A program made the translations under genes and the position numbers. A stretch of 64,000 nt of DNA from a virus, in IMG/VR virus record IMGVR_UViG_3300042882_000899, positions 1-64,000 of that record, one strand, 5' to 3'. Positions 2,277 to 54,548 of this stretch are shown here, piece by piece. The stretch's first letter is position 1. Every line of letters begins with the position of its first letter. A model generated the notes under the pieces. That model had not been told where the DNA came from and did no database searches. It saw only the letters and a program-made list of their open reading frames with translations.

Positions 2277-2281
2277 TTAGC

Positions 2282-6893: not shown

Positions 6894-6957
6894 AAAGATT
6901 TACTATACTTAGTTCTGAGCAGTTTAAAATAAATTACTCATATTTATAAGGAGTAAC

Positions 6958-7505: not shown

Positions 7506-7595
7506 TGCTAATATTTTTTTATGGTGTGATGTTAGGATTTGTTGTAGGCTACGGAGTTGGTCTTTTAATGGATAAATGGGATAAGAGGATTAAAA

Positions 7596-9559: not shown

Positions 9560-9696
9560 AATTGTATAAAAATAGAGACTGGTTACATAGGAGATATGTA
9601 ATACAAAGAAAAACAATGTCTGAAATTGCACAAGAGTGTGGCGTAACTGTTATGACCATACATAGAGCATTAAAAGAAAAAGGTTTAATAAAATGA
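9556..9696 (+). CDS. small helix-turn-helix protein (absent from ORF track)
   Basis: MKLYKNRDWLHRRYVIQRKTMSEIAQECGVTVMTIHRALK. Confidence 0.7.
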   Translation: MKLYKNRDWLHRRYVIQRKTMSEIAQECGVTVMTIHRALKEKGLIK

Positions 9697-10034: not shown

Positions 10035-10051
10035 AAGTATAATATATTAAT

Positions 10052-23677: not shown

Positions 23678-23910
23678 TGATCTGTCTTAACGAGTCAGGC
23701 GTTAATGTATTAAAAAAAAGAGCAGAGTCTAGTAACCTAGAAATTCGCTGGAATAACTACGATGTAATATTATGGCAAAAAGACTCTTCTGGATTCTTTA
23801 ATGTAAACGGAGAGTATAGAAAAAATAGCTGGGGCATTAGCAGTAAGTTTATTGTTAATGAAAATGGAGTTTGGGCTTTTCCAAAAAAATATGTCAAATA
23901 TTTTAAATGA
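23677..23910 (+). CDS. hypothetical protein
   Basis: Coupled ORF. Confidence 0.6.
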   Translation: MICLNESGVNVLKKRAESSNLEIRWNNYDVILWQKDSSGFFNVNGEYRKNSWGISSKFIVNENGVWAFPKKYVKYFK

Positions 23911-24202
23911 TTTAGACTCTGATGAGCAATCTATAAGGTGGTGGCACCTTGCCGCATGCAGTGGCATGGATACAAATTTATTTTTTGATAAATATGAATC
24001 AGATATAAATATGTCTAAGGCCATAGATCAATGCTGTTTATCTTGCCCAGTTATGGCAATTTGTTATAAAGCTGGTGTAGATAATAATGAGTACGGAGTT
24101 TGGGGCGGTGTATTTTTGTCAGCAGGGCTAGTAGATAAAATAAAAAATGTTCATAAGACAAAAGATATATGGAAACAAGTAAAGGCAAAACATAGTGTCT
24201 AA
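23891..24202 (+). CDS. whiB: WhiB-family transcription factor
   Basis: AAC..MD..LFF, CxxCPV...C, GVWGG. Confidence 0.9.
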   Translation: MSNILNDLDSDEQSIRWWHLAACSGMDTNLFFDKYESDINMSKAIDQCCLSCPVMAICYKAGVDNNEYGVWGGVFLSAGLVDKIKNVHKTKDIWKQVKAKHSV

Positions 24203-38854: not shown

Positions 38855-39058
38855 CATGGGTATACTAGACAACCTTGAAGCGGCTTTAGAGGCGGAAGAG
38901 GCAGAAAAGTGTCATTACTGCCAAGCTGTAGCTATATATAATGACCTTGCTGAAGTAGATAAGAACTATCAAATAGTAGGCGTATGTGCATGCCATTCAT
39001 TTAAAGGACTATCCTCCTAACTATTGACAATTCCTAGTCGACTAGGATATAATGTAAT

Positions 39059-40015
39059 ATGAAAAAAACAAAATGGCTATCATCAATTGCTATATCAATT
39101 ATTATGGCTATTTCTCCTGCGTCAGCAGTCGAGAATGGAACCTTATTAACACACGATGACAATGCTGTCTATTTATTAGACGGATCAGTAAATGCTTTCC
39201 TTTACAAGCCACAGATCGTATTCACATCTGCACATGGAATGGACCAGTGGGCTAAAGGAGATCTATTTGTTAATACATCCTACGGCAAAAAAGTAATGGT
39301 TAAACAGATACTAATGGCAAAGGGATTTAAAGATAGAATAATTACTAAAGAATCAATTGCGTCAGGAACATCAGTCACAAGCAGGTCCAATGACTTTGCA
39401 ATACTAATCTTATCAGAACCAATTCCAATGACAAATACAGTAGAATTAATTAAGGCTGAAGATCTTCCTATCATTCTTAATAGCCAAGAGCCAGTATACT
39501 CAGTTGGATATAGCTATTATGACAACACTCGCAAGAAAGACCAGAGCCCAAGACAACTTGAAGCAAAGATGATTGATAAAGAGTTGGCACGTCAGATATA
39601 CCAAAGGTACTATTCAGTCTGGCATCCAAATTGGGGTCCACGTGGAGCAACATTCGAACTGCTAGATATTCAATTAGTACATTCTGCAGCAAAAGGCTCA
39701 GGTTGTGACGGAGACTCAGGCAGTGGTTACTTTATTAAAAGGGGTGAAAACAAGGTCTACTTGGGTCCTGCTGGGGCACACAGTATTGGAATACCAAACT
39801 GCGGTCAGCCTGGATATTGGGGTGAGTACGGTAATGCCTTTGGTATTGAACCTGTATATAAACACTTAGATCTTATAAAAGAGGCTGAACTAATTGTTGA
39901 TAGCATGGTAATTAAGCCAGTAGACCCGAAGGTGGAACCTAAAGTAGAACCGAAAAAGAAGTATAATAGGAGATGGTCTAGCTTATTCAGGTATACACAA
40001 TTTCTTATGTGTTAA
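39059..40015 (+). CDS. secreted trypsin-like serine protease
   Basis: Signal peptide, TSAH, NDFAIL, GDSGS; TTGACA/TATAAT leaderless promoter. Confidence 0.8.
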   Translation: MKKTKWLSSIAISIIMAISPASAVENGTLLTHDDNAVYLLDGSVNAFLYKPQIVFTSAHGMDQWAKGDLFVNTSYGKKVMVKQILMAKGFKDRIITKESIASGTSVTSRSNDFAILILSEPIPMTNTVELIKAEDLPIILNSQEPVYSVGYSYYDNTRKKDQSPRQLEAKMIDKELARQIYQRYYSVWHPNWGPRGATFELLDIQLVHSAAKGSGCDGDSGSGYFIKRGENKVYLGPAGAHSIGIPNCGQPGYWGEYGNAFGIEPVYKHLDLIKEAELIVDSMVIKPVDPKVEPKVEPKKKYNRRWSSLFRYTQFLMC

Positions 40016-40092
40016 TATAGTCTAATATAGGCCGAAAGTGAAGTCGAAAAGTAGAGACACCCAGTCACTACGTGACAATATAGATTGGCAAC

Positions 40093-40440
40093 ATGAAGAA
40101 TTTAAATCAGGTATTTAAGCCTTATAAGGCTCAGTTTGATAGATGCCCTATACATATTAAGATCCTAGCCATATTGTGCGTTATGTACCTATCTGTCCCA
40201 ATTGACCCATTTGATATACTATTCCCCTGGGCGGCATTCTCAGATGATATATTCATAGCAGGCATCCTACTCAAGATATTGCACAAACACGGCGGGCTAC
40301 CAGAAGAAGATAGAACTACCCCTATAGATCTACTAAGAGATATATTCAAGAGAACAGATAAGAAACAAGAAGATACTTCCTTGGCAGTACATTTATTTAA
40401 AGATAATGTATGCAAGGATTGTGGATTGAAGCAAGTATGA
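40093..40440 (+). CDS. DUF1232/YkvA-like protein
   Basis: YLSVPIDPFD...DD. Confidence 0.65.
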   Translation: MKNLNQVFKPYKAQFDRCPIHIKILAILCVMYLSVPIDPFDILFPWAAFSDDIFIAGILLKILHKHGGLPEEDRTTPIDLLRDIFKRTDKKQEDTSLAVHLFKDNVCKDCGLKQV

Positions 40441-40645
40441 AAGAAGAATTAGATCCATTAGGCATATCTTGGAAAGATGCACCAGATTGGTGTGATGATT
40501 GCAATTCAAATCCTGGAGAAAAATGTCCAGATTGTGGCTATACACACAATTGCTAGAGCTCCACAAATAGGGACATATTAGCTCCTAACTACTATATCCC
40601 CCCTCCCTTTATCTCCCTTGTATCAGCCTCCTAGAGGCTTATATA

Positions 40646-40671
40646 GTGGAGTATTGTGGAGTAAAGTGGAG
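40646..40671 (+). promoter_or_regulatory. MraZ-like triple box
   Basis: GTGGAG-N4-GTGGAG-N4-GTGGAG. Confidence 0.55.
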
Positions 40672-41067
40672 AATCATACTATCAATTAATGTCTAAATAC
40701 TATCATTATATATATCTAAACATATGTATGTAATGGAACGCTACCATTTGATGTTCATAATGTCAATAGCGCCTATATAAAGCATATTGGCCAATATATG
40801 TCAATAGATATTCCAGGAAATTTTTTTATTTGTTCGTAAAGAGCAATTTTGGCCCATATTTATGGCAAAAATTATGTCAAATTCTGCATGATTTGTCTCA
40901 TATAATGAGATATTCTATGCACATTTTGACAGATTATATTAGATTTAATACAAATTCCAGGGCATTTTTATATGTGATCGTAAAGAGAAAATTTGGCCCA
41001 TAAGATGGGCATACAAAAATGGGACATATAGCTAATTAAAGCCATATGCCCCATAGGGGAAGTTATC

Positions 41068-41412
41068 TTAGAATGAATCCAAGTCCATTATGTATTTACT
41101 ATCTCTTACTCTTGTTTCTTCAAGGGATTGGATTGTTAGGTTTCTATCCACCGCCCCGTATTTTGCTTCCAGGATGTCATTGAGAGCATCTGCCATAAGC
41201 AATCCTTCGGATGTGTATCCTTTATCCCATTCTGACTTTAATCTAAGGGAATTGTATTGGATAATGTATCTAACTAGTTCCATTAGCCTGTCTTGGGTAT
41301 ACAAGGTATGTTCAGTTGTTAATACATTTGCCATTACAGCAGGTGAGAAGTTAGCATTATTTAGATAGTCTGTTAGTTTTTCTGCCGCTTTGAATTCGTT
41401 TGCTTTAGCCAT
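41068..41412 (-). CDS. hypothetical early protein
   Basis: Own promoter and AACGAAAGG leader. Confidence 0.75.
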   Translation of the reverse strand: MAKANEFKAAEKLTDYLNNANFSPAVMANVLTTEHTLYTQDRLMELVRYIIQYNSLRLKSEWDKGYTSEGLLMADALNDILEAKYGAVDRNLTIQSLEETRVRDSKYIMDLDSF

Positions 41413-41509
41413 TGAGTTCCGCCTTTCGTTTTGATTATACCATTGACCACTGACATTTGTAAATGAAGGGGGACCCGCCTCAGCAGAGGCAGGTCCCCAC
41501 AGTTAGTTG

Positions 41510-41662
41510 TTACTTGACGTTCTTCTTGTCTGTGAAGACTACGCCTTCTTGTGCTGCCTTGCTGATAGCTCCTAGAGCTGCTGCTGAAAAGCGACCACGC
41601 TTGCCTACAGAAATGCCCTGGGTCTTTAGGTACTCACGAGTTGTTGTTGGTGTTGATGTCAT
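41510..41662 (-). CDS. Lsr2-like DNA-binding-domain-only protein (absent from ORF track)
   Basis: TREYLKTQGISVGKRGRFSAAAL; SD GAAAGGA; followed by a GC hairpin. Confidence 0.7.
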   Translation of the reverse strand: MTSTPTTTREYLKTQGISVGKRGRFSAAALGAISKAAQEGVVFTDKKNVK

Positions 41663-41812
41663 TTAGTTTGATCCTTTCTAGATCGAGTTGTTATATATAT
41701 TATATCCGAATTTCGGGGATTTGTAAATAGAGTCGTAAAGCAATATTTTTGCCCGTCTCCCTTAGATTGATGACCGTTATGTCCGAATTGTCCATAACGG
41801 TCCAACCTATCT

Positions 41813-43309
41813 TTATTTAGTTGTTACTTCTAGTTCTACTACATTGTATGGCTCAATCAGGTCATCAGTTGGAATCTCAGTCCAGCCCTCTGCAGGAATC
41901 CTAAGCGCTGACTCCCATGCAAGGTCGTGAGACTCTGCGTTAATGATTACATAAAACTCTTGCTTGCGGTCACCATAGATTTTATAGTCTTGTCTCATAG
42001 TCCCACCTGTTCTACCCTATCTTTAATTAGTTTAGCAATGATGTTATGGGCCTCGATGTTTTCAGTTTCGCTGCCACCCCATAGCAAAGCTTGGGCCTTG
42101 CTAAGTTGATCGTTTAAGTATTCATCACTCATCTTCATCTTCGTCTTCTTCCTCTTCCCACTCAGGGTCAGTAATGTAGTCACGATTCAACATCCACTCT
42201 AGGACATCGTCTTGGTGCTGTTCTGCACCGTATTCCAAGGAAAAGCCTTGTCCAGCCTCCACAGCCTCGCACAGGTGGTTCCACATGTCATCTTGGGTAA
42301 CCTTAGCATTGTAGTTCTCATCATCTAAGATGTTATTAATAGTTGACCATGTCCATAGCCAAACAAGCGATAGGCCAAGGTCGGTGCTGTCTAGAATCTC
42401 TAAACACTTGTTTAGTTTATCTTTATCTTCAGGCTTCATTCAATGGCTCCGAATCTATTCTCTCTTGAATTGCAAATGAGAGTTGATATGTTAGTTGATA
42501 CAGGTCAACTAGCATGTCGAGTCGTCCTTCACACTCTGTACGGACCATAGAGTCCATTGCCTCTTCGGACCTTTCTTCTTGTGCTAATGCCTCTGATAGG
42601 TCTTGCTCAGCAATTAGCATTAGATTCTTTAGTTCACCATGCAAGATATCAAGGCCTGATACTCCAGCATTAACCATGCGTTGCAAATGGGGCGGGAGCC
42701 CAATGTCTTCTGCAGTCATATTCATTAATATACCCTTTCGTTATCAAGCATTATATCAGTTGCCACTGACAAAATATGTTCCATAGTATCAATTGCTCCT
42801 GTGTAATATGCATCTGATTCAAAGTACTCATCTTCATTTAAAGGTATGTTATTTCTAGCATCCTCTAAATCTTGTTCTAAACTAATCTTATGTATCTTTA
42901 GATATTCCATAAAATGTGATGACCTAGTCAAAATAACCCTCCGCCCATAGTCCCTGGAGAAAACTAACTGTCATCTCCAAATCATTTCTAAGTTGTGTCT
43001 TGTCCATTAAATCGGACGGGGATCGAAGATAGAATAACTTAGCATCATGTACTGAGTTAATCATAGTATCTAAATCTTTTTTCTCATATCCTAACATCAT
43101 AAGCAGAACTCATCTCCTTCAATATATCCATAGTATTCATTGTATGATTGTTTTAAGTTATCAGGTGCAAATTGCATAAACTTAAATTCTGCATAATCTG
43201 TACCTTCATCTAAATTAGCATTGTTCCATTGCTCAAATAGATGTTGCTCAATATCTACTTGAATTGCTCCAAGAAGATGTTCTCCTACTGTATCTGTAAA
43301 TGCTTCCAT
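41813..43309 (-). other. run of seven coupled small hypothetical ORFs
   Basis: 41813-41998, 41995-42138, 42125-42439, 42429-42725, 42725-42931, 42924-43100, 43097-43309. Confidence 0.7.
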
Positions 43310-44043
43310 TATGCTTCCGCCTTTCTATATTCAGGAACTTTGGTTTCTAAGTATACACTATGGGTCTGACATTCTTTAACAGCCTCTAGGTCTGCCTCGC
43401 CAAGCCAGTTGCAAGCACCGCAGATTTCTCCACATTCATTCTCGCAGTATTCCATTTGATTAGTTGCATCACAATCACGGCACATGTTATCATATTCTGA
43501 TTCTGAGATAACTTCACCACGGAGGAATTCCATTTCCCCACCCCAACCTGTTTCTTCTTCATATGATAAAGTAAATAGTAGTGTTGGGTATTGTGCAGAT
43601 AGTTTAGAGATAGCACCAAGAGGCCGTGACCATGCAGTATTAAAGTTATAATGAACTACATAGTTCTCGCCATTCTCGGCTTCCTCGATAGTTGTATCAG
43701 GATACTTGTCATCTTCTGATACAGCAACATCCCACTTAGTACCCCACTCACGAACATTAAAGTTGTACCAGTCATTGGTCTCAAACTTCATTGCCTGAGA
43801 AAAGTCGGTGGAACGAGGAGGTTGTCCATGATATACCTCATCAGTAATACCAGCATCCTTATATGAATAGATATTATGAAAAGCAAAGATAGGATTAACA
43901 TACTTAGTCTGCTTGACATCATATGATAAATCACCTACAGGTGTAATAGAATAAACAAATGGCTTATTCATCTGCTTGATTAGATTTTTAACTTGCTCAG
44001 GATTACCTTCAATAGTTAATCCATTAAATACCCAGTTTGGCAT
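43309..44043 (-). CDS. DUF1281/YubB-ferredoxin-like protein
   Basis: MPNW, WY.FN..WGTKWD, FNTAWS.P. Confidence 0.75.
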   Translation of the reverse strand: MPNWVFNGLTIEGNPEQVKNLIKQMNKPFVYSITPVGDLSYDVKQTKYVNPIFAFHNIYSYKDAGITDEVYHGQPPRSTDFSQAMKFETNDWYNFNVREWGTKWDVAVSEDDKYPDTTIEEAENGENYVVHYNFNTAWSRPLGAISKLSAQYPTLLFTLSYEEETGWGGEMEFLRGEVISESEYDNMCRDCDATNQMEYCENECGEICGACNWLGEADLEAVKECQTHSVYLETKVPEYRKAEA

Positions 44044-44267
44044 TTTATATCCTTTCGTTGATATGTTCCTATTATATATTAGACCACTGACAAATGTCTA
44101 TATGATATGGGTCACAAACGATAATTTGACCCCTCCAAATTAGTGTTTACACTTCTATATGTAAATCAATATAGATGTGTAAGCTTTGTGGTCAAGATCA
44201 TAGCAAATTCCAGGGAATATAATTGACAGTCGTAACGACAATATGCTACCCTCATGTCTTTGCGGGC

Positions 44268-44297
44268 AAAGAAAAACCCCCCAGCTAGTGGGGGGTC
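44268..44297 (-). terminator. intrinsic terminator
   Basis: CCCCCC-ACTAGCT-GGGGGG followed by TTTTTCTTT. Confidence 0.75.
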
Positions 44298-44417
44298 TTG
44301 AATAATGGCTGCCTGGATTTCCAACGAAAGAAATAAACCCGCTTTACTTAGCGCCTGGCCATTGAGACTGATAGACGCACCATTATATTTCCTATTAAAA
44401 CCAGGACCTTAGTCCTA
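44268..44417 (-). ncRNA. candidate small RNA with an anti-leader loop
   Basis: TGGTATAAT at 44423-44431, 5' hairpin, loop AUUUCUUUCGUUGG, intrinsic terminator. Confidence 0.55.
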
Positions 44418-44423
44418 GTCTAA

Positions 44424-45356
44424 TTATACCATAACTAGTCGACTGTATTTGTCTACGAATGCCGCCAAGGATAGACTGAATACAACCGTGCTCATATCTT
44501 CCTCGTACAGTGTAAACGTTTGAGAGGCCCAGTTAATTACAGGCACCTTGTGTTCGTTGTCCCCTAGTTGATTTACGTAGAGCCCCCATGATAATGTTTG
44601 ATTCCAGTCTTCTCCAATTAAATGAGAGATTGCAATACGTGTTGCATATGATGGGTCCTGCCAACGTGTCTCTGCAGCGCTAACAGCATTTGCCAGTTTG
44701 GCTAGCATGTCGTGGCCTGCCCAGTGCCCGTATAAAAATATTGTATCGCCTTTTTGGTCTTTAAACCCAAAGTTTGCTCTGTCGCCCATATTATTCCGCC
44801 GTTTCTAAAGTAGGTACTGCTTCTTCTATTTTGTTTAATTCTATCACTTCGTATGCGACCTTGTCAAGGCCACGCTTGCTTGCATTGTAGTGGTGACCGC
44901 AAAAGAACAGTTCACCTTCTACTAGTTTAACTAAGTACATTGCTTGAGCTGTGTTACATTGATCACATGCTATCCATCTTGTTAGATCTTCCGTTGTCAT
45001 AGTTTTCCTCCTTCGATCATCTCAGATAGACGGTCAAGGATCCAGGAATCAATGTCGTTGATATCAATCTCTGACAACTTTTCCATGATCTCTTCACGAG
45101 CAAACTTATATCCATCTGCCCAGCCATCTTTATATTCTGACATAATCTCTCCTTAGTAACCTGTTGTTTCGTAGTCTGATATGTATGATTCAGTTAAGTT
45201 GTACTTATCACGCAGACGACTTACTTTCTCAATACTACCAGTTCCAATGTTGAATGTCAATGGAGCCATTCTCTGCGGGTCGAGTCCGTTGATTTCTGCA
45301 TCCCAATAGGCCCTCTCCATGGAGAGCCTATTAGGAGCGGTGAGTTCAAAATACAT
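44424..45356 (-). other. four small hypothetical ORFs
   Basis: 44424-44789 (LYGHWAG), 44791-45000 (CxxC..CGHH), 44997-45143, 45153-45356. Confidence 0.7.
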
Positions 45357-46012
45357 TATGCCTCCCTAACGTTGCAAACTTCGGTGTCATCAATTGTGAT
45401 GTTTCCGTCATTTGATTCAGCATATAATGAATCTGTTATAACTGACTCAAGGTCGTACTCTGAATAATCTGATAGAACATCATATGAATATGTTCCAGTA
45501 ACTTCTACAGATGCAGTAAACTGAACTTCCTTGATAAGTTCGATACCAAGCGCTTCAGCAATGTCACGCAATGTATCTTGGTCTTGTGAATCTGCATATG
45601 CCTCGCAGATGATTTCCTTGACTGCATCAATCTTAGATTGAATAGAACTTAAAGTCTTCTGCGATTGACGGGCATTGTGAAGGTCCCATTCAATACTGGT
45701 AACCTTATCTGTAATGTACTCAGGATTAGAATAACCGTTAATCTTTTTATATGTTACTAATAGATTAGAGTTATATGTATCTGGTACCAAGTGCTCTGTT
45801 GTTTCCATTTTTTCCTCTTTCGTTTGGGTTAAGGGTGTAATTGTAGCATGCTCCACTGACAATAATGTAGTCTTACGCCCGCATGGGCATGTGAGTTCTG
45901 TCACACCTGAAGGAAAGCCAAATCCATCAGATGATGTAAGTTCAATTAAACAATCGCAATGCTCAGGATCACATGCGAATGTGTATTTACTTGATATGAG
46001 TTCGTTGGTCAT
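45356..46012 (-). CDS. hypothetical protein with long (46012) and short (45808) in-frame starts
   Basis: Two nested promoters; Cys-rich N-terminal extension. Confidence 0.7.
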   Translation of the reverse strand: MTNELISSKYTFACDPEHCDCLIELTSSDGFGFPSGVTELTCPCGRKTTLLSVEHATITPLTQTKEEKMETTEHLVPDTYNSNLLVTYKKINGYSNPEYITDKVTSIEWDLHNARQSQKTLSSIQSKIDAVKEIICEAYADSQDQDTLRDIAEALGIELIKEVQFTASVEVTGTYSYDVLSDYSEYDLESVITDSLYAESNDGNITIDDTEVCNVREA

Positions 46013-46113
46013 GAAGAGAATTATACACCAGGCCACTGACATTTACAATAGATTCCAGGGAATATTTGTGTGAGTCGTAACACACTTTTTGCCCCCTTAG
46101 CTTTGAGGGCGCT

Positions 46114-46190
46114 TGGCGATCCATATCGGACTTGAACCGACGGCCTCTACCGTGACAGGGTAGCGCTCTAACCAACTGAGCTAATGGACC
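46114..46190 (-). tRNA. tRNA-Asp(GTC) with encoded CCA
   Basis: Canonical cloverleaf, CTACC-CTGTCAC-GGTAG. Confidence 0.92.
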
Positions 46191-46201
46191 AAGAAAAATT
46201 G

Positions 46202-46229
46202 TGAGCAGTTTTTAATCATGCTCAGGATT
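46202..46229 (-). ncRNA. 3'-UTR pseudoknot motif, copy 3
   Basis: AATC-CTGAGCAT-GATT-AAAAAC-TGCTCA. Confidence 0.55.
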
Positions 46230-46236
46230 TTATTTA

Positions 46237-47244
46237 TTAAAACGCAGAAACTAATTTTTTAATTTTATTTTTTTCTGCGGTTAGAATTGGGTCAAAGCCT
46301 GATGCACCAGCCATAAGTGTTTCAGAATTGCCACGACCTGAACGATAATAGTCAAGGCGTTCAGTAAGTGCATTGAAAGCACCCCACTTTGTACCCTTGA
46401 TGTTAGCGTTAGTTGGTGAGTTATGATAAAGGTCATCAAGCAAAACGACTTTATTCTCCCACTTAGTTAGCGCAACTTTAGCAGCATCCTTATCTGGCTT
46501 AGGATAAATTGTCTGAATCAACTTTGAGAATTCTGCATCAGTAATTGATTGAGAATAAAGTGCTTGCGCTTCCTTCTCAAATTCATCAAAGTATCCAAGA
46601 GCAAGACCAAGAGTCTCACGAGCAACTTGGATGCGACCTTCAACAGATTGCGTGTGGCGAATCTTAAATGATTGCTTTGCATTACGCATTGCAAGATTAA
46701 GAGTGTTTTGGCATACTACACGAACAGGGGTAACAGCAGCCTGAACAGCCACAGACCCGTCATGAGATGTCCATACGATTAGATACAACTTAGTTGCATC
46801 ATTTGCGCCTTGTGGGTCAAGCACCATTGTGCGAGGAATGTCCACAGTACCAAATACAACTTTACCGCTACGCAATGAGCCAGCAGACTCCCAGCGACAG
46901 TCAGCGTTTGCATCATGAATTGCATCAGCAAATGCAAATAGTTCCTCATTCTGCACAGGCTTGTAACGCTTGCCAACAGTGGCAAGAACATCAGTACCCT
47001 GATTGAATGGGTTATCACGAATAACTAACTGAGCATTTGATACATCATTCCATGTATCGGAGATGTGGTCAGTTAGTGGAGATAGACGAACATTCCAATT
47101 GGAAAGTTTTGCCTCATCCAACATCATTTGAGTTGTAACATCCTCATCTTGTGTAAAGATGCGATTTGCGAGATTGTGCCATGCAGGTGCGCCACGCAAT
47201 GCAAAAGCAACTTGACCATTTTCGGTTTCTAGATTATGAGCCAT
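46237..47244 (-). CDS. DUF932-family phage/plasmid protein
   Basis: MAHNLE...PAWH, Y.PVQNEE.F, SHDGS, TPVRVVCQNTL, RHT. Confidence 0.88.
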   Translation of the reverse strand: MAHNLETENGQVAFALRGAPAWHNLANRIFTQDEDVTTQMMLDEAKLSNWNVRLSPLTDHISDTWNDVSNAQLVIRDNPFNQGTDVLATVGKRYKPVQNEELFAFADAIHDANADCRWESAGSLRSGKVVFGTVDIPRTMVLDPQGANDATKLYLIVWTSHDGSVAVQAAVTPVRVVCQNTLNLAMRNAKQSFKIRHTQSVEGRIQVARETLGLALGYFDEFEKEAQALYSQSITDAEFSKLIQTIYPKPDKDAAKVALTKWENKVVLLDDLYHNSPTNANIKGTKWGAFNALTERLDYYRSGRGNSETLMAGASGFDPILTAEKNKIKKLVSAF

Positions 47245-47444
47245 TTATTTTTTACCTTTCGTTTGATTAGTTGTAAGTATAACAGAACCCACTGACAAAT
47301 ACTAGTCTAGTTACATTATGTCTCATTATGTGGGATGTGATCAATCTCACAAAATTCCAGGGATATCCACAGGCAGTCGTAACCCTGTGGATAACCCCTC
47401 AGATTTACGGGCCAGCTGCAGAGAATGCAGCCAGTGTTAGATCT

Positions 47445-47699
47445 TTAAAGACCTAACTCATCCCTAGTTAATTTATTTGTTCTCCCATAATTAATAACTT
47501 CGGACGGGAGGTAAAGAGCAGTAGTCTTAGTCTTCTTCAATGTATCATACACATAAGCACGTACATCACCAAAGAAGTTACGTCGATTAGAAAATGCTAA
47601 CTCAGTTAAGTATTCTTTATCTACGCCTTGCTCTGAATAAATTGTTAAATCATTTAACTTATTTGCGTCATAAATTTCTACACGAAATCTATTTTTCAT
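47445..47699 (-). CDS. hypothetical early protein
   Basis: SD plus ORF. Confidence 0.65.
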   Translation of the reverse strand: MKNRFRVEIYDANKLNDLTIYSEQGVDKEYLTELAFSNRRNFFGDVRAYVYDTLKKTKTTALYLPSEVINYGRTNKLTRDELGL

Positions 47700-47734
47700 T
47701 TTGTTACCTTTGTTAGTGGTTGTCCCCGAAGGGA

Positions 47735-47761
47735 GAGCAGTTTGGCGACATACTCAGGTCG
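47735..47761 (-). ncRNA. 3'-UTR pseudoknot motif, copy 4
   Basis: CGAC-CTGAGTAT-GTCG-CCAAAC-TGCTC followed by a UUCG hairpin. Confidence 0.55.
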
Positions 47762-47770
47762 TTGGATTGT

Positions 47771-48187
47771 TTAGAGATACTTAGCAATTTGCTTCATTGT
47801 AGAAGCATTTACTGTTTCCTCATCTGTCATCTTGAGAATTGTGAGAGCATTTGTGATGTCCTCTTTCATTTCCTTATACTGCCATTGTTGTATAGTCTCA
47901 AAGTCCTTCTCAGGCTCAGCAGGGAAATCGCTTTCGCCTGTTGTGATGTCAAAATCAACATTGAGAGTTTTGTTCCATTGACGATAGTTTGTGCGAAGGT
48001 TCTCAGCCTTTGAGAAGCGGTCAATAGCCCACTTTCCAATTTCCTTCTGCCACTTTTCATAAGCCTTCTTATACTTTGCTTCGTTGGCTTCTTGTGAGGC
48101 ATAGTTCTTTTCTATTTCTGCTAGACGAGTCTCTAGTGCCTTGATTACCTTTGGTGTTGCCACCTTTACTGTGATTGCTCTACTCAT
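47771..48187 (-). CDS. hypothetical early protein
   Basis: Own promoter and leader. Confidence 0.75.
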   Translation of the reverse strand: MSRAITVKVATPKVIKALETRLAEIEKNYASQEANEAKYKKAYEKWQKEIGKWAIDRFSKAENLRTNYRQWNKTLNVDFDITTGESDFPAEPEKDFETIQQWQYKEMKEDITNALTILKMTDEETVNASTMKQIAKYL

Positions 48188-48273
48188 TGTTATTACCTTT
48201 CGTTGGTTGTTTAGTTTGTTTGAGTATTATAGCAGGGGGGTCTGACATTTCTGCGACCCCCCATGCCGTTAGA

Positions 48274-49171
48274 TTATACGCCTAGTAGGGTTTGAGCAGA
48301 TACCGAAGTCCAACGAGTTTCCTTGTTGGGCATTTCTAGTAGCACACGCACCGAGCCAGATGTTTGTGGGTGGATTTCCTTAATCACACCTGTTTTCTTT
48401 GACTTGAGAGTGGTGAATAAATCGCCCACCTGATACAACTTGTCGTTGATTGTCATTTATTGCCTCTTTTCTTTGTTAGGTTGGTAATTATAGCATTGGG
48501 GTCTGACATTAGTCTAGCCCTATCTCACTATGTGAGAAAGTTATTGTGTGATAAAAATCACAAGTATTCGGTTAGATCGCCATCCATGATCTCATTTAGC
48601 TCTAAGCCTTCTGAGTCTGCGATTGCTTCCCATAGATCCATTTCATTAAAGTCTCCATCAGGATGTCTCTCTGATAAGATAGAATAAAGATTATTCATTA
48701 GTAATCCTCCTCTGGTAGCCAAGCGTCTAAGTGGTGTTGTTCAGCAATTGCCCAAGCGGGTGCTGTTGTTCTATCTTTGTATTTCACGCCTTCAGGAAGT
48801 GCTATTGGTGCATCGTATTCTCCCGCATGGATAGCATCAATGGCATCAATGCAGGGTTGCACCATAGAAAGTGGGACGGGTGGGTAATGATTACCCTGTA
48901 AGTGATAGCCTAGTGCTACCTCTAAATCTAATTCAGTTAAATCTAATGCTGTGTTGTATCCCATTTATTCTGCCACCTTTAGAATAGCCCATGAGCCACC
49001 CTTGTTAATTTCATCTAGTGCAGGCTTAAGTGTTGGTGCAATAAGTGTTTTTAGCATTCCTTCTAGCATAAGTATTTGGTCTGACTTATCAAGTGCAAGT
49101 AGCATAGCACCTGTTGGATTAGTTTCATCAACTTCAGTTATGAAGCGGAGAGCGTGTTCGATAGTTATCAT
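48274..49171 (-). other. small early ORFs 48274-48456, 48698-48964, 48965-49171
   Basis: Each behind a promoter or coupled; HLQGNHYPPVP motif in 48698-48964. Confidence 0.7.
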
Positions 49172-49454
49172 TTTTTGCCTTTCGTTGTTGGTATAAGAGT
49201 ATTATAGCGTAGGCCACTGACAAATTGTGCAACACTCCCAAGATTAATCTAATTTATTTTGTGATTAATCTCACAAATTTCAGGGGGTTGTGGATAACGC
49301 CCGTAAGCCTGTGGATAACCCCGCAGTATTGCGGGCTTCCCGCAGCTTTTATTGATCAAATTTATTTTTATGTTTTATTTTGCGTGTGTATTTTTTTTTA
49401 TTACGAACAGGTTGCGCCGCATTACTGCGGCGCAATTCCTGAATTCGTTTTACT

Positions 49455-49646
49455 TTATCTCGAAGTGAATTTTGGAACATTGTATCCACTCGCTTCGTGA
49501 AATCGTTTTACATCAAATCGCTCATTATCTTTAGCAAACATTTCAGCGAAATCATTTACCATTTTAGAAAAAACAGCGGGGTGAGTTTTATCGCTAGCAT
49601 ACTTTAGAATTTCTGCGGTTGCGACATAATCTTTGCGTGTCATCAT
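49455..49646 (-). CDS. hypothetical protein, paralogue of the C-half of 24493-25005
   Basis: MTRKDYVATAEIL...FAKDNERFDVKRF. Confidence 0.75.
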   Translation of the reverse strand: MMTRKDYVATAEILKYASDKTHPAVFSKMVNDFAEMFAKDNERFDVKRFHEASGYNVPKFTSR

Positions 49647-49849
49647 TTTACTACGACCCTTCTGCCTTCACGATAAAAAACTTTTGTGTGGCATTTGCCA
49701 GTTGGCGTGTAAAGATTTACAGTTGCGTATTCATCAGCAAATCCCCAATCGGTAAAGCGGAAAAAGTTTTCCCACGCACCAAATTCGTTTTCGTATTCTG
49801 CCGACCAATGCGGAGCATTTGAGTCATAGGCGCAAGTTAGTTTATACAT
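49643..49849 (-). CDS. hypothetical protein, paralogue of the N-half of 24493-25005
   Basis: MYKLTCAYD...TDWGFADEYATVNLYTP. Confidence 0.75.
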   Translation of the reverse strand: MYKLTCAYDSNAPHWSAEYENEFGAWENFFRFTDWGFADEYATVNLYTPTGKCHTKVFYREGRRVVVK

Positions 49850-52547
49850 TAGTTGTTCTCCAATTCTTTTACACAATCGCATTGTTCGCAATCATAGTCA
49901 TTATCATTACCAAAAAAGATTACTCCGTATCCGTGGCAATCTATACAATCTATTCTTATTAGTGAGTTTATCATTTAGTTTTCCTTTCGTTTTGTTATTG
50001 CTTATTATAGCCTAAGCCACTGACATTTATTCGGCTTCGGGGGTGGTGAATAAGGCTCCCTCGTTGAGTAGCCCTACCTCAATGTTAAACAGTTCATCAG
50101 GGGTGGCTTCGGATAAATCTACCCAGCCCGCACCATTTTGATCAATTCTAAAAATCTCAATGTATCCCATTAGTGTTGTTCCTCGCAATCTTTGTCATAG
50201 TCAAATCCGCAAAAGTAGCAACCCATAAACTCTAGGTGCTCTATACAGTAATACTTAAATTGACTTTCATCACAGCAAAAATGTTGCTCGTCTGCGATTT
50301 CATAGAAATCGGTTTTGTCGATTATGTTTAGCATTAGTTTTCCTTTCGTTTGCTTATTTAGTTATTGTACCGCAAGGGTCTGACAAATTAGTCAGACACC
50401 TTGACGGCTAAATAGCGGTATGTATCTTTTAGATTTAGCGGGGCTGAATAATGAGGTCGAACCTGAACCTTGTATGTATCACAATTCGCATACCATACAT
50501 CATCATTTTTTTCCGCTGAGATAATTTCACCCTTTAGAGTTTTTGAGTGATAAGTTTTTCCTACAAGTAGGCTTTCGATAGAATAGACATTTGCTGACAT
50601 TTGAGTCCGCCTTTCGTTTGTTGATAGTAGCAATTATAGCCTATCCCACTGACATTTTCTAATTACTAGCGAGTAATTCCAAATAATGAGACGCTCAAGT
50701 CATGTGATAAAAATCACAAAATCTCGGGCGTGTCGCAAATTCCAGGGGTTGTGGATAACTCCCGTAACCCTGTGGATAACCCCGCTCTTTTGCGGGCGCA
50801 TCAACTTTTGTCAAGTCGACACGCCGTTACTTATTTAAAATCTTTAAAAATTTCCTCAAGCTTTAAGATTTGCTCATCTGTTAAATGATCAATTTCAATT
50901 GCTTTTTCAAATCCAAAAAAATCTGTCATTCGCTCATCAACCTTTCTAAATCGTCTGCGTTATCTTTCATGTAATTATCTTGAAAATCTAGTAACGCCTC
51001 ATTGTAAGCAATTGGGTCACAATCTTTTAAGATTTGGGAGGGATAGAAAACAGCGTTACCCATTTCATAGACGGGATAACAATCATCAAGCATTTCATCA
51101 AATAATTGTTTAATCGCAAAAGTAATTTCGAAATCTAGCATTAGTTAGTTTCCTTATCTTTTAGAATGTTAAGAATAATTTGTAATTGTTCAACAGAAAG
51201 AAGTGCTTGAGCACAACCCCATGTAAATGCTAAATCCATTTCTTGATAATGTTTTTTAGCAAGTGTATTTATTTCTTGCGTTAATTCGAAATTAGTTTTC
51301 ATTTAGATACATACCAATCTGTCCACATAGGAAGTTGCTCAGGGTCACTATCATAGTAGTAACGCTCAATGTTTTGTTCACAATCCATACAGAAAGTGTA
51401 TTGCTCATCTCCGATTTCTGAGATAGCGGATTTCATAGGGTTATGTTCTTTACATAGCGTGTTTAGTGTAGTCATTTGAGACCACCTTTCTTTTTGTTTG
51501 TATGTCGCTATTGTAGCAGGGGGGTCTGACATTTTGACCTGTTTCTCGGGCGTGTCGCAAAACTATTTTTGTGATAAAAATCACATAAATCCTGGGGTTT
51601 TCCACAGATGCCCGTAAGCCTGTGGATAACTCCCGCAAGTACTTGCGGGCCAGCTTGATAATGTCAAGCCGACACGCCGTTAGGCTAGTGTGACTCTTGC
51701 CACAATTCACGCATCTCTGCCATGAAGTCATGGTAGGCGATCCTCGCCATGTATAGGGCGGGAATAGCAATGGCTAATTGTACTAGTGTAGTAAGTAGTC
51801 TATTCATAGTGTAGCAACCGCCTTTATGTCCATTACATTAGCAGTAAACTTTTTACTCTTTCCTAATTCGCTCTCATTAAGAGCATTGATTAGATTATCA
51901 ATAGCCTTTACATCATGAGCAACATTATCGATTGAGATTAGTTTAGAGCCTTGCCAAATTGAGTAAGTGATAGTCATTATTAGTTCTCCCATGTTAGTGC
52001 GTATAGTTTTGCTAGTGCTTCATCATCTTCATCATCAAAGTCATCAAAGTCAAGCGCTGGCGCTTCATCTAGTTCATCATCAAGGTGACGATAGGCGTCT
52101 GATACATCTGATTGGATAGTGTCCCACTTAGAGACGGAATTATTTTCGTATGAGTATGCGTATGACATTATTTATTCATCTCCTTAGCGATAGCCTCTGA
52201 CTTAGTTAGTGCCTCTAGGGCGATTGCTAGGGAGGCAAGGCGTTGCGCCTCTACCATTTGCTTGTATTCATCTAGGTTCATTTATGACCTTCTTTCGTTG
52301 TTGTTATTCTGTAATTGTAGCGTATGGGTCTGACAAATTGGGGAGGTTGGCTAGTGTGTCGGTGTGATACTAGTCACACTCTCCACATGGGCATTGAGGA
52401 AACTCTCGCTCTTGCTTTATGCGGTTAGCGAGTCGCTCTACCTTTAGGTATGTATCAGCGGAGGCACCTCGGAAAGATACTACCTTTCCTTCAGCGATAA
52501 GGTGAGCAGCCTTAGCAATCTTTTGCTCTAGTGTTAGTGAAGTCATT
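49849..52547 (-). other. about a dozen further 35-75 aa early ORFs
   Basis: e.g. 50388-50600, 50926-51141, 51299-51475, 51804-51977, 51980-52168; coupled TAATG junctions and SDs. Confidence 0.65.
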
Positions 52548-52805
52548 ATTTAACTTCCTTTCTTTTTGTTATACCTTAAGCATAGCATGGGGGACTGACA
52601 AATTGACGCAAATCTCGGGCGTGTCGCAAAAAAACCTTTGTGATTAGCATCACACTCACGCTCAAGGCTCAAATAATTATGGGCGCACTATCCAAAATGT
52701 CCGTTTTGTCTAGGATGTGTATCATACATGTAAAAAATATATTAACATTTTTAGAAATCCTAAAAAGCAGTCGACTGGAATATAATGCGGTGGTACAATA
52801 GAAAC

Positions 52806-53546
52806 ATGGAAGATAAAACCTACAAAGAAGCTAACGATATATTCGGAGACAATCAAATATTGTTTATGAATCACGGGTTTTGTCCAGTATCAGAAGATAT
52901 ACAGGATCTTGAATTTAAACATCAGGTAGAGTTATATAATCAAGCTATTAAAGAAATAGATTTAGATGACAAAGTAGTTTTAGAAATTGGTTGCGGAAGA
53001 GGCGGGGGATCAAAATGGATTTCAAGCAAACACAATGTGCCTACATATCATGCTTGCGATATATCTGAAGAAAATATAAACTTTTGTAATAAAACAAATA
53101 CTAATAATAATATAATATACTCAATTATGGATTCTCAAAATTTACAATATCCAGATGATTTCTTTGATCTTGTAATATGCGTAGAGTCTTCTCACAATTA
53201 TAAAAACATGGAACTATTTTTTGAGAACGTAAGACGTGTGTTGAAAAAAACTGGTCAACTGGTTTTATTAGATAACTATGTTCTTGGAGAGGAAGCAATC
53301 CAAAATAAGCTGATGTCTATAGATAGCGTAAAAGGGTCGGCAGTAGGATTTAATGTTTTAGAATATGTCGACATTACTGAAAATGTAAAAGCATCCTGTA
53401 AAGAAGATATCGAATTAATAGACAATTGGGTTTCTGACATAAACGCAGCGGAAAAATTAAAGTCTATATCTTCTGGTTCATACAAAAGATATGAAAATAA
53501 CCGCTGGGCCTATTTTAAATTTAAATTTGGTATGATAGATCTATGA
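52806..53546 (+). CDS. class I SAM-dependent methyltransferase
   Basis: FMNHG, VLEIGCGRGGG, FDLVICVESSH; leaderless start after TACAAT. Confidence 0.85.
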   Translation: MEDKTYKEANDIFGDNQILFMNHGFCPVSEDIQDLEFKHQVELYNQAIKEIDLDDKVVLEIGCGRGGGSKWISSKHNVPTYHACDISEENINFCNKTNTNNNIIYSIMDSQNLQYPDDFFDLVICVESSHNYKNMELFFENVRRVLKKTGQLVLLDNYVLGEEAIQNKLMSIDSVKGSAVGFNVLEYVDITENVKASCKEDIELIDNWVSDINAAEKLKSISSGSYKRYENNRWAYFKFKFGMIDL

Positions 53547-53864
53547 CATGTTCATTTTGCGATAAATACGCATATACAAGTATAATAGATAACCGCGGGG
53601 TTAAATATCGACTTTGCGAAGTACATGTCAAAAAAATTAGCACAACTTCTTGACTTCGATAAAAGTTAAATGCTACACTTAGTTTGCTTTGTGGGGGGCT
53701 TACCCTGAAACTCAATATGTACCAGATAGTATCTGAGAATATATGTTCCAGGAATTGCTTTCTCTATCTTTCCAAAAAGAAAAAATTTGGGGGGTAGGGG
53801 GGCTTTCCTAAAATCTAATATCCCCAGATAAATCTATAAATACAAACAGAAAAGAAGGTGTATA

Positions 53865-54548
53865 GTGGATAATGGAATAGTCGACAAAGACAAAAACGTA
53901 TACTTTTTGCATATTGCTGGTAATGGTGGAAGAGCTTTAAAAGAATATGTTTTAAATCCATTGTTTGGTAAGCAATCTGATATAGTAGGAAAACATAACG
54001 GGTGGTCAGATTTTATTAATGATCAAACATATGTTATTTGCATATTAAGAGATCCTGTAAAGCATGCTTGCGGATTTTATCTTCACTTTGTATATAAAGA
54101 AAAAGAAGGAACTGATGTAAAGTCCCGATTCCTTGATTACTATAGAAATACAAAGCAGCTTCACAATTTTCAATCTCAAAATATACTTGTTTCAGGACAA
54201 CATTTTAATTATGGGAATGGAAAACACTTTAATGAAGATCTAGCTGATACAGACTTAGATCTACTTAACAGTAGAATTAAAAGAATAGATCTGCTTATAA
54301 GCCAAGATATGCTCCTTAATGACATTCAGCATGTCTCTAATGTTTTGGCTGAAAATTTAGATCTACCAACAATCAAAATTAAAGAAGTTGACAAAACAAA
54401 ATATTCAAATTATATGTCACGCAACTTGTATAAATCTCTTACAGAAGAAGAAAAACAGGAAATTCAAAATTTAAATAGTATTGATTATAAAATTTATAGT
54501 CAACTAAGATTAGAAGAAATAAAAAAACGGGGAGAGTACAAAAATTAA
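53865..54548 (+). CDS. sulfotransferase-like protein
   Basis: YFLHIAGNGG, LRDP, N.IDYKIY. Confidence 0.65.
   Translation: MDNGIVDKDKNVYFLHIAGNGGRALKEYVLNPLFGKQSDIVGKHNGWSDFINDQTYVICILRDPVKHACGFYLHFVYKEKEGTDVKSRFLDYYRNTKQLHNFQSQNILVSGQHFNYGNGKHFNEDLADTDLDLLNSRIKRIDLLISQDMLLNDIQHVSNVLAENLDLPTIKIKEVDKTKYSNYMSRNLYKSLTEEEKQEIQNLNSIDYKIYSQLRLEEIKKRGEYKN

Follow-up and report, generated by a model that had tools for sequence, protein, structure and literature searches.

Which regulators are the many small promoters of a phage early-type region built to respond to? This question was raised by a leftward module of small genes in the IMG/VR virus contig IMGVR_UViG_3300042882_000899. The window that we analyzed comprised bases 1 to 64,000 of this 114,960-bp contig, and the module is located at about 40.56 to 52.81 kb (Table 1). 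The original prediction described the block as a candidate new system that was wired to host regulators of DNA damage, cyclic AMP (cAMP), and the cell cycle, and that carried its own shut-off RNA. Our results suggested that the block is an early or accessory gene module of a freshwater actinophage, and that its cassettes are expressed from hybrid promoters of the PafBC class with inputs from host CRP, DnaA, and MraZ. We put the probability of this reading, which is drawn from sequence comparisons, at roughly 0.6.

The promoters carried most of the evidence. The motif TGTCAG-N10-TANNNT was found at 16 sites, all of which were on the minus strand of the block, and at no other site in the 114,960-bp genome; shuffled sequences were expected to yield 0.63 sites. 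Every TGTCAG site was placed to drive a gene. Specifically, the -10 element ended 22 to 41 nt before a start codon in 15 of the 16 promoters and 8 nt before ATG 46012 in the remaining one. TGTCAG occupied positions -28 to -23, which placed it 10 nt before the -10 element, and no -35 hexamer was present (the consensus upstream of TGTCAG was AAA, with no TTGACA-like hexamer). We also examined 80 related IMG/VR loci, which yielded 646 distinct promoter variants. All of these variants had TGTCAG or TGTCGG, an A-rich preceding sequence, and no -35 element. Because the variants were picked with the pattern TGTCRG-N10-TANNNT, the retention of TGTCRG follows from the selection and is no independent test.

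The description on which the original prediction was built held up well. It had listed 15 TGTCAG-N10-TANNNT promoters of identical internal spacing, seven TGTGA-N6-TCACA sites, and about 40 tiny minus-strand open reading frames (ORFs), and we counted 16, eight, and about 38, respectively. Its six perfect TTATCCACA boxes, five CGACACGCC sites, and GTGGAG triple repeat were recovered at those counts. The enrichment of the motifs in the block (16 promoters versus 0.63 expected and eight palindromes versus 0.06 expected) and their conservation in the 80 related loci were also in line with what it had proposed. The TCTCA-N5-TGAGA palindromes that it had added to the list were present, but there were only three, one of which was inside a gene.

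The geometry of the phage promoters is identical to that of the published in vivo motif of PafBC, tGTCgg(N10)tA(N3)T, which has a -26 element at -23 to -28, a SigA -10 element, and no -35 element (PMC8635444). PafBC inserts between the DNA and region 4 of sigma, and this mode of readout by RNA polymerase has been called sigma adaptation (PMC8635444). The activator of PafBC is single-stranded DNA (ssDNA) (PMC11804915), and a link between PafBC and mycobacteriophage resistance is mentioned in a passage of PMC12848934 that cites Rafique et al. 2025. The features that the phage set has in common with the PafBC-dependent (RecA-NDp) promoters of Mycobacterium and other Actinobacteria are TGTC(R)G at -28 to -23, N10, TANNNT, an invariant GTC, and no -35 element (PMC8635444; PMC11804915). 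In contrast to the host promoters, the phage promoters are located in a lytic-type genome, where 16 of them fall within 12 kb; an entire chromosome of a candidate host has fewer. Another difference is that they often have an extended -10 element and an upstream CRP-type site, and their PafBC dependence is predicted. In a full-text literature search, we found no paper describing phage-borne PafBC-type promoters, and the papers on acI phages and on whiB-encoding actinophages did not treat promoters.

Next to these phage data we set a host-side sample of 301 genomes of the class Actinomycetia, of which 13 complete genomes of 1.33 to 1.47 Mb were used as candidate hosts. Genomes that carried an unpublished flag were left out of the comparisons. 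All 13 had TGTCAG(TGG)-N-TACCTT located 235 to 285 nt upstream of the RecA domain and followed by a LexA box, and three larger genomes had TGTCGG in place of TGTCAG upstream of recA. The phage 9-mer TGTCAGTGG was identical to the recA element of the candidate hosts, the A at position 5 included. Tandem WYL genes (pafB/pafC) were found in each of the five small genomes tested. The WYL proteins of one of them, G127, matched the structure of RNA polymerase with PafBC (PDB 7P5X; PafB, E 4e-39; PafC, E 9e-22), and the DNA-reading arginines (R-x3-R, i/i+4, in ...RMFERD...) were conserved. Thus, the match to the PafBC consensus that the original prediction had noted was strengthened by the published geometry, by the use of TGTCAGTGG at recA in the candidate hosts, and by the presence of PafBC in these hosts.

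Each candidate host genome contained about 10 TGTCAG-N10-TANNNT sites. Most of them were clustered in one island, where they were found 28 to 47 nt before gene starts, as in leaderless-type transcription. In G127, the island is located at G127:C1:438000-470000, and similar clusters were present in G085, G213, and G243. The island genes encode a DrmD-like SNF2 helicase (E 2e-127), a GmrSD/SspE-like protein, a C5-methylase, an OGG-like glycosylase, TPR proteins, and a trypsin-like peptidase. This locus looks like a defense island under PafBC-type promoters, which would place it under the same switch as recA.

Half of the TGTCAG promoters were accompanied by a second element, the perfect palindrome TGTGA-N6-TCACA. 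There were eight of these palindromes, all in the block (0.06 expected), and all eight were upstream of a TGTCAG promoter, at distances of 54, 43, 54, 64, 53, 54, 54, and 44 nt. Three of the palindromes were identical in sequence, and the spacer sequences between palindrome and promoter differed. The distances in the relatives fell into classes of 43 to 45, 53 to 55, 63 to 65, 75, and 86 nt. Because the distances are periodic at ~10.5 bp, they argue for a protein bound on a fixed helix face relative to the promoter. The same arrangement was found in a more distant relative, a 109.9-kb contig that was mis-binned in a "cyanobacterium" metagenome-assembled genome (MAG) and whose DUF932 protein and ribonucleotide reductase (RNR) are 71% and 79% identical, respectively, to those of the phage studied here. 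This contig had 12 TGTCAG promoters, all in one orientation, together with four palindromes at distances of 64, 43, 64, and 74 nt, and its intergenic DNA was different by eye.

On the host side, the single Crp protein of the candidate hosts matched M. tuberculosis CRP (E 6e-77) and C. glutamicum GlxR (E 7e-73), and its recognition helix, ...GASRETVNKALADFA, was identical to that of M. tuberculosis CRP. Judged by these matches, the host Crp is the orthologue of both proteins. The chromosomes of the candidate hosts contained 0 to 1 perfect TGTGA-N6-TCACA sites. Class I CRP promoters and the actinobacterial CRP/GlxR sites (PDB 3MZH and 4CYD families) have in common with the phage arrangement a perfect palindrome upstream of a core promoter and position steps of ~10.5 bp. 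The phage arrangement differs from class I CRP promoters in that its palindrome centers are 2 to 3 bp off the E. coli positions and in that the predicted CRP binding is paired with a PafBC-type core promoter. We know of no description of such a combination.

LexA boxes were present neither in this phage genome nor in the 80 close relatives. In the distant relative (G306:C31, about 6040-6095 of the locus), a CRP-like palindrome and a TGTCAG promoter were immediately preceded by a perfect LexA box of the actinobacterial type, TCGAACAGATGTTCG, and this box was identical to the one beside recA in the candidate hosts.

Candidate sites for DnaA and MraZ were also found. The 9-mer TTATCCACA occurred seven times in the window, with six copies in the block (0.78 expected), and eight times in the whole genome, with two copies outside the block; two further one-mismatch inverted copies were present in the block. 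These boxes formed pairs. In 203 distinct units of relatives, the pairs occupied fixed positions, -12 and +9 relative to a TTACG sequence and 21 bp apart, and the second box was sometimes inverted with its position unchanged. Because TTATCCACA clustered around dnaA/oriC in all 13 candidate hosts, the phage pairs gained host-side support as candidate DnaA sites. The TTACG sequence belongs to a scaffold, (GC hairpin)-TTACG-N15/16-CCCTGGAAT, of which the relatives contained 381 copies, all on the gene strand. The scaffold was absent from the 13 host-like genomes, which ruled it out as a host promoter class, and a sigma-54 reading of it was rejected on spacing, by eye.

The triple GTGGAG repeat at the downstream edge of the module resembles an MraZ operator, and it was found at the same module edge in the relatives, the distant one included. 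All five of the candidate hosts that we examined had GTGGNG arrays with a 10-bp period upstream of mraZ (e.g., GTGGAGTAAAGTGGGG), and the 16-nt phage core GTGGAGTAAAGTGGAG matched 15 of 16 bases of the mraZ-upstream array in two hosts (G243 and G283). As an alternative, the triplet might be a terminase-recognition or terminase-binding repeat. The CRP, DnaA, and MraZ readings of the original prediction each gained host-side support in this way (the Crp helix, the oriC 9-mers, and the mraZ-upstream arrays, respectively). The WhiA reading of CGACACGCC did not. All five CGACACGCC copies were in the block, and relatives had up to eight copies. The conserved element is the longer sequence (G)CGACACGCC(CGAG), which extends beyond the GACAC core. 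The long form CGACACGCC(CGAG) was not enriched in the host genomes, CGACACGCCCGAG occurred there at chance level, and GACAC alone was not enriched in the block (12/52).

A further element of the block concerns translation. The promoter-proximal genes had a common leader and ribosome-binding element, AACGAAAG(G), the Shine-Dalgarno part of which is GAAAGG. We found 11 copies of AACGAAAG on the gene strand of the block, one on the opposite strand (the complement of the anti-leader described below), and two elsewhere in the genome. The claim of the original prediction that a small transcript complements this leader was also correct at the sequence level: a conserved unit was located at 44268-44431(-), between genes, and it was ORF-free and ended in a strong terminator. 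We compared 19 variants of this unit, which were as little as 71% identical. The -10 element and the segment CTTTCGTTGG were invariant, and seven pairs showed compensatory changes. Complementarity was seen between the segment CTTTCGTTGG and CCAACGAAAG, the leader and Shine-Dalgarno region that the genes have in common, and the predicted pairing partners are CUUUCGUUGG in the small RNA and AACGAAAG in the leader. The predicted duplex energy with the translation-start regions of the block had a median of -11.8 kcal/mol, compared to -8.3 kcal/mol for other phage genes, and the best values were -18.8, -17.7, and -16.0 kcal/mol. An Rfam search gave no match for the small RNA and found only tRNA, and no anti-leader RNA was found in the cultured Streptomyces phage Jay2Jay.

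Judging from these comparisons, we consider the small RNA to be real, conserved, and structured. It is plausible, given the complementarity and the conservation, that it damps or shuts off early translation. The c4 RNA of phages P1 and P7 is a trans-acting antisense RNA that masks ribosome-binding sites, and RegB of phage T4 shuts off early mRNAs at GGAG. The feature that makes these systems comparable to the present one is a small structured RNA with complementarity to a Shine-Dalgarno region that a set of early phage mRNAs has in common. Unlike c4 RNA, to which it has no sequence or Rfam relationship, the small RNA would have many targets rather than one.

The limits of the module were sharp. 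Homology breakpoints were found at 40,563 to 40,599 and at 52,744 to 52,811, each in 16 of the 17 full-length relatives that we used for boundary comparisons, and they matched the limits that had been predicted (40560-52780). The flanking rightward genes were variable among otherwise very close relatives, and only 0 to 30% of the 17 relatives aligned at 39000-40560 and 52810-54500. Genome-wide, the motif sets were confined to ~40.56 to 52.81 kb, save two stray copies each of TTATCCACA and AACGAAAG. The motif sets were retained in the 80 related IMG/VR loci. The distant relative kept the TGTCAG promoters, the TGTGA-N6-TCACA palindromes, the GTGGAG triplet, and CGACACGCC. By this comparison, these four elements are the conserved core, to which the close lineage has added the DnaA boxes, the scaffold of TTACG and CCCTGGAAT, and the small RNA. 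Because the latter three are confined to the close lineage, the five-regulator combination of the original prediction is not a fixed system.

Within these limits, small genes that mostly lacked known relatives were arranged on one strand as single-gene or few-gene cassettes. Relatives differed inside the module by whole cassettes, and the cassettes were paralogous and mosaic. Homology breakpoints were enriched in regulatory zones (25 of 59 clusters versus 26% expected; P = 0.005), and most of the others were at gene junctions. This organization is similar to that of the PeSL (promoter-early stem-loop) cassettes of T4-type phages. There, repeated hairpin-plus-promoter cassettes reportedly bound single small genes in a hyperplastic region, with breakpoints at cassettes and gene junctions (attributed to Arbiol and colleagues, 2010). 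The analogy stops at organization: the module described here has a different promoter class, sites that resemble those of host factors, and the extra TTACG/CCCTGGAAT scaffold, and there is no sequence relationship.

From the motif geometry, the confinement to the block, the conservation, the helical phasing, and the host-side counterparts that we observed, we infer the following binding events and their timing. Each cassette would start with a hybrid promoter that lacks a -35 element, and PafBC, an ssDNA-activated WYL activator, would make this promoter readable to the housekeeping RNA polymerase. The ssDNA or DNA damage that arises from infection or replication would activate host PafBC, which would then fire the phage cassettes by the switch that appears to drive recA and the defense-type island in the candidate hosts. 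At the half of the promoters that have a fixed-face CRP/GlxR site, cAMP-CRP would probably modulate expression. In the close lineage, the DnaA boxes at the two fixed scaffold positions and the copy of the MraZ operator at the module end may regulate, sequester, or do both. Finally, the small RNA, which appears to have a constitutive promoter, would probably damp translation of the first cistron of each unit by pairing with the leader and ribosome-binding region. A stronger version of this scheme is tentative and, in our judgment, rather doubtful. In that version, ssDNA would serve as the ignition key: PafBC would fire all 16 promoters, half of which would be gated by cAMP-CRP, phage DNA would sequester DnaA and MraZ, and the anti-leader RNA would later close the regulon.

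Several observations weigh against the PafBC-class promoter reading. About half of the phage promoters have a TGn extended -10 element and a near-consensus TATAAT, and because of this they may fire without PafBC. An ssDNA-activated factor is also an odd choice for immediate-early genes. The motif occurred at 0 to 2 sites, equal to the control, in the cultured relatives Jay2Jay and BillNye; because these phages are without it, the TGTCAG wiring is a trait of the freshwater lineage and not ancestral. The distant relative lacked the DnaA boxes, the TTACG/CCCTGGAAT scaffold, and the small RNA altogether. With regard to CRP, the palindrome centers are at about -63.5/-64.5, -73.5/-74.5, and -84.5, a shift of 2 to 3 bp from the classical class I positions of E. 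coli. In addition, a minority class of 31 of 646 units of the relatives was off phase, at 49 to 50 nt, and the paralogy of the cassettes means that the shared spacing partly reflects common descent. Finally, we infer that the 13 small genomes are of the acI/Nanopelagicales type from their size, their class, and a G+C content of ~45% only.

Three other explanations of the motifs were considered. It is unlikely, in our view, that TGTCAG is read by a phage-encoded or virion-delivered factor and that its likeness to the PafBC motif is a case of convergence or shape mimicry. In favor of such a factor, no family could be assigned to more than 30 of the block proteins. Other strictly phage-specific cis elements exist, namely, the TTACG/CCCTGGAAT scaffold that the host genomes lack, and phages can supply their own sigma appropriators, such as AsiA/MotA of T4 (mentioned in PMC8635444). 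However, domain searches of the phage turned up no WYL domain, no sigma domain, and no helix-turn-helix (neither a WYL gene nor a sigma factor was found), and the phage 9-mer TGTCAGTGG is the recA element of the candidate hosts. A phage factor also could not start the very first genes unless it was injected. Similarly small odds applied to the idea that the site arrays are mainly DNA decoys that soak up PafBC, CRP, DnaA, and MraZ, such that the damage or defense response is blunted, host replication and division are stopped, and gene control is secondary. The numbers of perfect sites in the phage genome versus a candidate host are suggestive of this (16 versus about 10 for TGTCAG, 8 versus 0 to 1 for CRP, and 6 versus 3 to 5 at oriC for DnaA), as is the placement of an MraZ-like triplet at a module edge with no obvious gene to control. 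Yet all of the TGTCAG sites are placed so as to drive a gene and the palindromes are in helical phase with the promoters, and pure decoys need neither placement nor phase. The DnaA boxes, moreover, are absent in the distant relative.

The least probable explanation, and one that we consider a long shot, is that the motifs beyond the sigma-A -10 element are by-products of the duplication and shuffling of one regulatory cassette, as in PeSL, and that their likeness to host sites is coincidental. The paralogous and mosaic cassettes, the breakpoints in regulatory zones (P = 0.005) and at gene junctions, and the three identical palindromes would all fit this explanation. Against it, spacer sequences diverge but lengths are kept, the second DnaA box flips its orientation but keeps its position, and four separate motifs each match a host-side counterpart. 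The TGTCAG-N10 geometry also persists in the 646 variants and in the 71%-identity relative, where the intergenic DNA is different by eye. In the reading that we prefer, host PafBC and CRP are the probable readers of these promoters. As a leftward module of early or accessory genes, the block belongs to a general type that is already known from phages, and what sets it apart is a new sort of promoter wiring; the label "new system" was overstated. The proposed role as an early host-takeover module was in part sustained: the block does have the form of a one-strand, tiny-gene module of an actinophage, but titration and shut-off are inferences.

An additional question, which is compatible with the PafBC-class reading, is whether the module is one copy of a collapsed direct terminal repeat of ~12.2 kb, so that the virion DNA would be ~127 kb and the module would enter the cell ahead of the rest of the genome, as in SPO1, T5, and the Streptomyces BE phages. 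The chances of this appeared to us about even. Long terminal repeats with host-takeover or early modules are found in Bacillus phage SPO1 and coliphage T5. Among cultured phages, the 25 best matches to the DUF932 protein of the module were all from Streptomyces BE phages, and in all 25 the homologue was present twice per record. The direct terminal repeat of one BE phage, Jay2Jay, is 11,438 bp long, contains the DUF932 homologue, and has about 23 small leftward genes on which rightward genes converge. The circular closure of the contig, described below, is expected of a collapsed repeat or of circular permutation. The sum of 114.8 and 12.2 kb, 127 kb, fits the genome sizes of the BK/BE phages (127 to 133 kb), and the module boundaries were sharp in 16 of 17 relatives. 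On the other side, the variable flanking genes explain the sharp boundaries equally well, the only other gene in common with the Jay2Jay repeat is a weak Lsr2-like match, and BillNye, the closest phage by DnaE, has no DUF932 gene. The contig ends of relatives were scattered through the block with no pile-up at both edges; we rejected them as markers of physical termini because strain variation explains them better. No repeat longer than 9 nt was common to the two module edges, and the contig is a closed circle with one module copy. What makes the terminal-repeat idea plausible is solely its homology with the BE-phage repeat of 11.4 kb.

Early modules in long terminal repeats (SPO1, T5, and BE phages such as Jay2Jay) have in common with the block a size of 10 to 13 kb, dozens of tiny one-strand genes, and closely placed promoters with a hairpin and an operator-like repeat, and the Jay2Jay repeat also has a CGAAAGG-type leader and the DUF932 gene. 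The BE repeat differs in that it has sigma-A -35/-10 promoters (TTGnnn...TAGACT) and a GTCCGnCCCGGACA palindrome, no -26 element, and almost no other genes in common, and the module described here is only a candidate repeat. In the intergenic cassette that recurs in Jay2Jay 1-11438, a GC hairpin is combined with either a GTCCGnCCCGGACA palindrome or a CGGACA(T/A) motif, with a promoter of the TTGnnn/TAGACT type, and with a CGAAAGG leader. Motifs of the CGGACAT type were also seen in the distant freshwater relative, and CGGACAT was not enriched in the genome studied here. Apart from RNR, no synteny was found between the module flanks and Jay2Jay or BillNye.

The rest of the genome indicated what kind of phage carries the module. 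The two ends of the contig have a 156-nt stretch in common that is identical at all but two positions (154/156; window 1-156 versus genome 114805-114960), and a 1,147-amino-acid DnaE reading frame was continuous across the junction. Because of this overlap and this reading frame, the "linear" IMG/VR record is a closed circular assembly of ~114.8 kb with strain variants at the join. The G+C content was 37%. The genes of the phage include those for a WhiB-family protein, a polymerase of the DnaE type, and a class II RNR, and there are six tRNA genes. The WhiB-family gene, which is divergent and located outside the module at 23852-24202 (+) (Pfam E 1e-12), supports an actinobacterial host. The DnaE protein was 52 to 56% identical to DnaE of Streptomyces BK and BE phages (Stanwilliamsviridae). 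Because of the WhiB gene and because the best DnaE and DUF932 matches were in Streptomyces phages, we identify the phage, by gene content, as an actinophage and as a distant freshwater relative of the Streptomyces BE/BK phages. A nucleotide search of the phage collection for nearest neighbors gave no match. The contig names, among which the Lake Mendota series is represented, indicated an origin in freshwater lakes, and more than 270 IMG/VR contigs were related; therefore, this uncultured phage is common. Its host is probably an actinobacterium of the acI/Nanopelagicales type.

An attempt to assign the host with the phage RNR was abandoned, because the contig scan gave only phage contigs that were mis-binned in MAGs of many phyla. 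Contigs of this phage group had been binned into MAGs labeled Bacteroidia, Saccharibacteria, Brevundimonas, cyanobacterium, Maricaulis, Methanobacteriota, and others. Such bins reflect the contamination of published MAGs by phage contigs and do not inform host assignment.

The coordinates of the features are listed in Table 1. With regard to the proteins of the module, Pfam and PHROGs searches assigned no function to most of them (more than 30 had no family) and detected no helix-turn-helix domain. The DUF932 protein is the largest protein of the block and was 51% identical to terminal-repeat genes of Streptomyces BE phages. The 50-amino-acid protein that resembles Lsr2 also had a weak tblastn match to the Lsr2-like gene of Jay2Jay (E 0.008). 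The ORF at 46012-45356 (-) appeared to have two promoters and two starts, which would give a 218-amino-acid form with a Cys-rich N terminus and a 150-amino-acid form from ATG 45808. At the downstream end of the module, 40560-41067 is a 500-bp, AT-rich, ORF-free stretch that could be a packaging, end, or origin region. It contains two scaffold copies preceded by ATGGGCCAAA(T/A)TT..CTCTTTACGA, three TTGACAT motifs, and the GTGGAG triplet; the CTCTTTA part of the ATGGGCCAAA(T/A)TT..CTCTTTACGA element resembles a boxA core.

Table 1. Features of the leftward module and its flanks, in window coordinates
Feature	Coordinates	Strand	Details
Whole leftward small-gene module	40563..52811	-	~38 ORFs, at least 16 transcription units, one tRNA, one small RNA; from gene calls and homology limits
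PafBC-type promoter TGTCAGTCCCCCATGCTATGCT, first unit	52579..52600	-	33 nt to ATG 52546; palindrome 54 nt upstream
PafBC-type promoter	52314..52335	-	33 nt to ATG 52281; palindrome 43 nt upstream
PafBC-type promoter	51510..51531	-	35 nt to ATG 51475; palindrome 54 nt upstream
PafBC-type promoter	50633..50654	-	33 nt to ATG 50600; palindrome 64 nt upstream
PafBC-type promoter	50364..50385	-	30 nt to ATG 50334
PafBC-type promoter	50004..50025	-	30 nt to ATG 49974
PafBC-type promoter	49201..49222	-	30 nt to ATG 49171; palindrome 53 nt upstream
PafBC-type promoter	48487..48508	-	31 nt to ATG 48456; palindrome 54 nt upstream
PafBC-type promoter	48226..48247	-	39 nt to ATG 48187
PafBC-type promoter, DUF932 gene	47276..47297	-	32 nt to ATG 47244; palindrome 54 nt upstream
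PafBC-type promoter, mRNA probably leaderless from ATG 46012	46020..46041	-	TATAAT -10 separated by 7 nt from ATG, which is in the frame of the 45356 ORF
PafBC-type promoter inside the 46012-45356 ORF, then AACGAAAG and internal ATG 45808	45840..45861	-	palindrome 44 nt upstream
PafBC-type promoter, Api92-like gene	44071..44092	-	28 nt to ATG 44043
PafBC-type promoter embedded in 3' end of upstream gene	43350..43371	-	41 nt to ATG 43309
PafBC-type promoter embedded in 3' end of upstream gene	42750..42771	-	25 nt to ATG 42725
PafBC-type promoter, last gene	41434..41455	-	22 nt to ATG 41412
Eight CRP/GlxR-consensus palindromes	45890-45905, 47336-47351, 48547-48562, 49260-49275, 50703-50718, 51570-51585, 52363-52378, 52639-52654		
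Candidate DnaA-box pair	47386-47394(-) and 47363-47371(+)		second box ATATCCACA
Candidate DnaA-box pair	49310-49318(-) and 49289-49297(-)		
Candidate DnaA-box pair	50771-50779(-) and 50750-50758(-)		
Candidate DnaA-box pair	51621-51629(-) and 51598-51606(+)		second box TTTTCCACA
Scaffold (GC hairpin)-TTACG-N15/16-CCCTGGAAT, nine copies	40810-40839, 40955-40983, 41711-41738, 44208-44235, 46053-46080, 47355-47382, 49278-49306, 50740-50767, 51589-51617	-	
MraZ-operator-like direct repeat GTGGAG-N4-GTGGAG-N4-GTGGAG (GTGGAGTATTGTGGAGTAAAGTGGAG)	40646..40671	+	downstream edge of module
CGACACGCC(CGAGA) elements	52618-52626(-), 51549-51557(-), 50727-50735(-), 51670-51678(+), 50817-50825(+)		
Leader/ribosome-binding element AACGAAAG(G), 11 copies	41423..52299	-	11-17 nt after -10 of promoter-proximal genes
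Small noncoding RNA unit	44268-44431	-	extended -10 TGGTATAAT (44423-44431), 5' hairpin, internal stems, anti-leader UUUCUUUCGUUGG (44321-44333), terminator (44272-44297)
DUF932 protein, 335 aa, most conserved module gene	46237..47244	-	Pfam PF06067, E 6e-56
tRNA-Asp(GTC) within module	46114..46190	-	
Api92-like (DUF1281_C) protein, 244 aa	43309..44043	-	Pfam PF18406, E 5e-11
DUF7455 protein, 69 aa	44791..45000	-	Pfam PF24254, E 2e-12
50-aa protein, weak likeness to Lsr2 DNA-binding domain	41510..41662	-	Pfam PF23359, E 0.009, below cut-off
Trypsin-like protease, flanking gene	39059-40015	rightward	variable flank
S-adenosylmethionine methyltransferase, flanking gene	52785-53546	rightward	variable flank

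Phage early promoters are normally of the plain housekeeping-sigma type or are read by phage-made factors. In the phage described here, which is very common in lakes, the promoters of a whole early or accessory module are of the type that belongs to the RecA-independent DNA-damage activator of actinobacteria. If PafBC does fire these promoters, this would be the first viral, natural exploitation of sigma adaptation. The presence of TGTCAG at recA would also provide a sequence-only signal for predicting the hosts of phages that infect the hard-to-culture acI bacteria, and the compact natural promoters, if they combine PafBC and CRP inputs as proposed, would be suited to in vitro study. More broadly, if the proposed reading is true, the early region of a lytic phage would imitate the cis-regulatory DNA of several host regulons simultaneously, and the phage program would be linked to a WYL-type alarm that seems to drive a defense island in its likely hosts.

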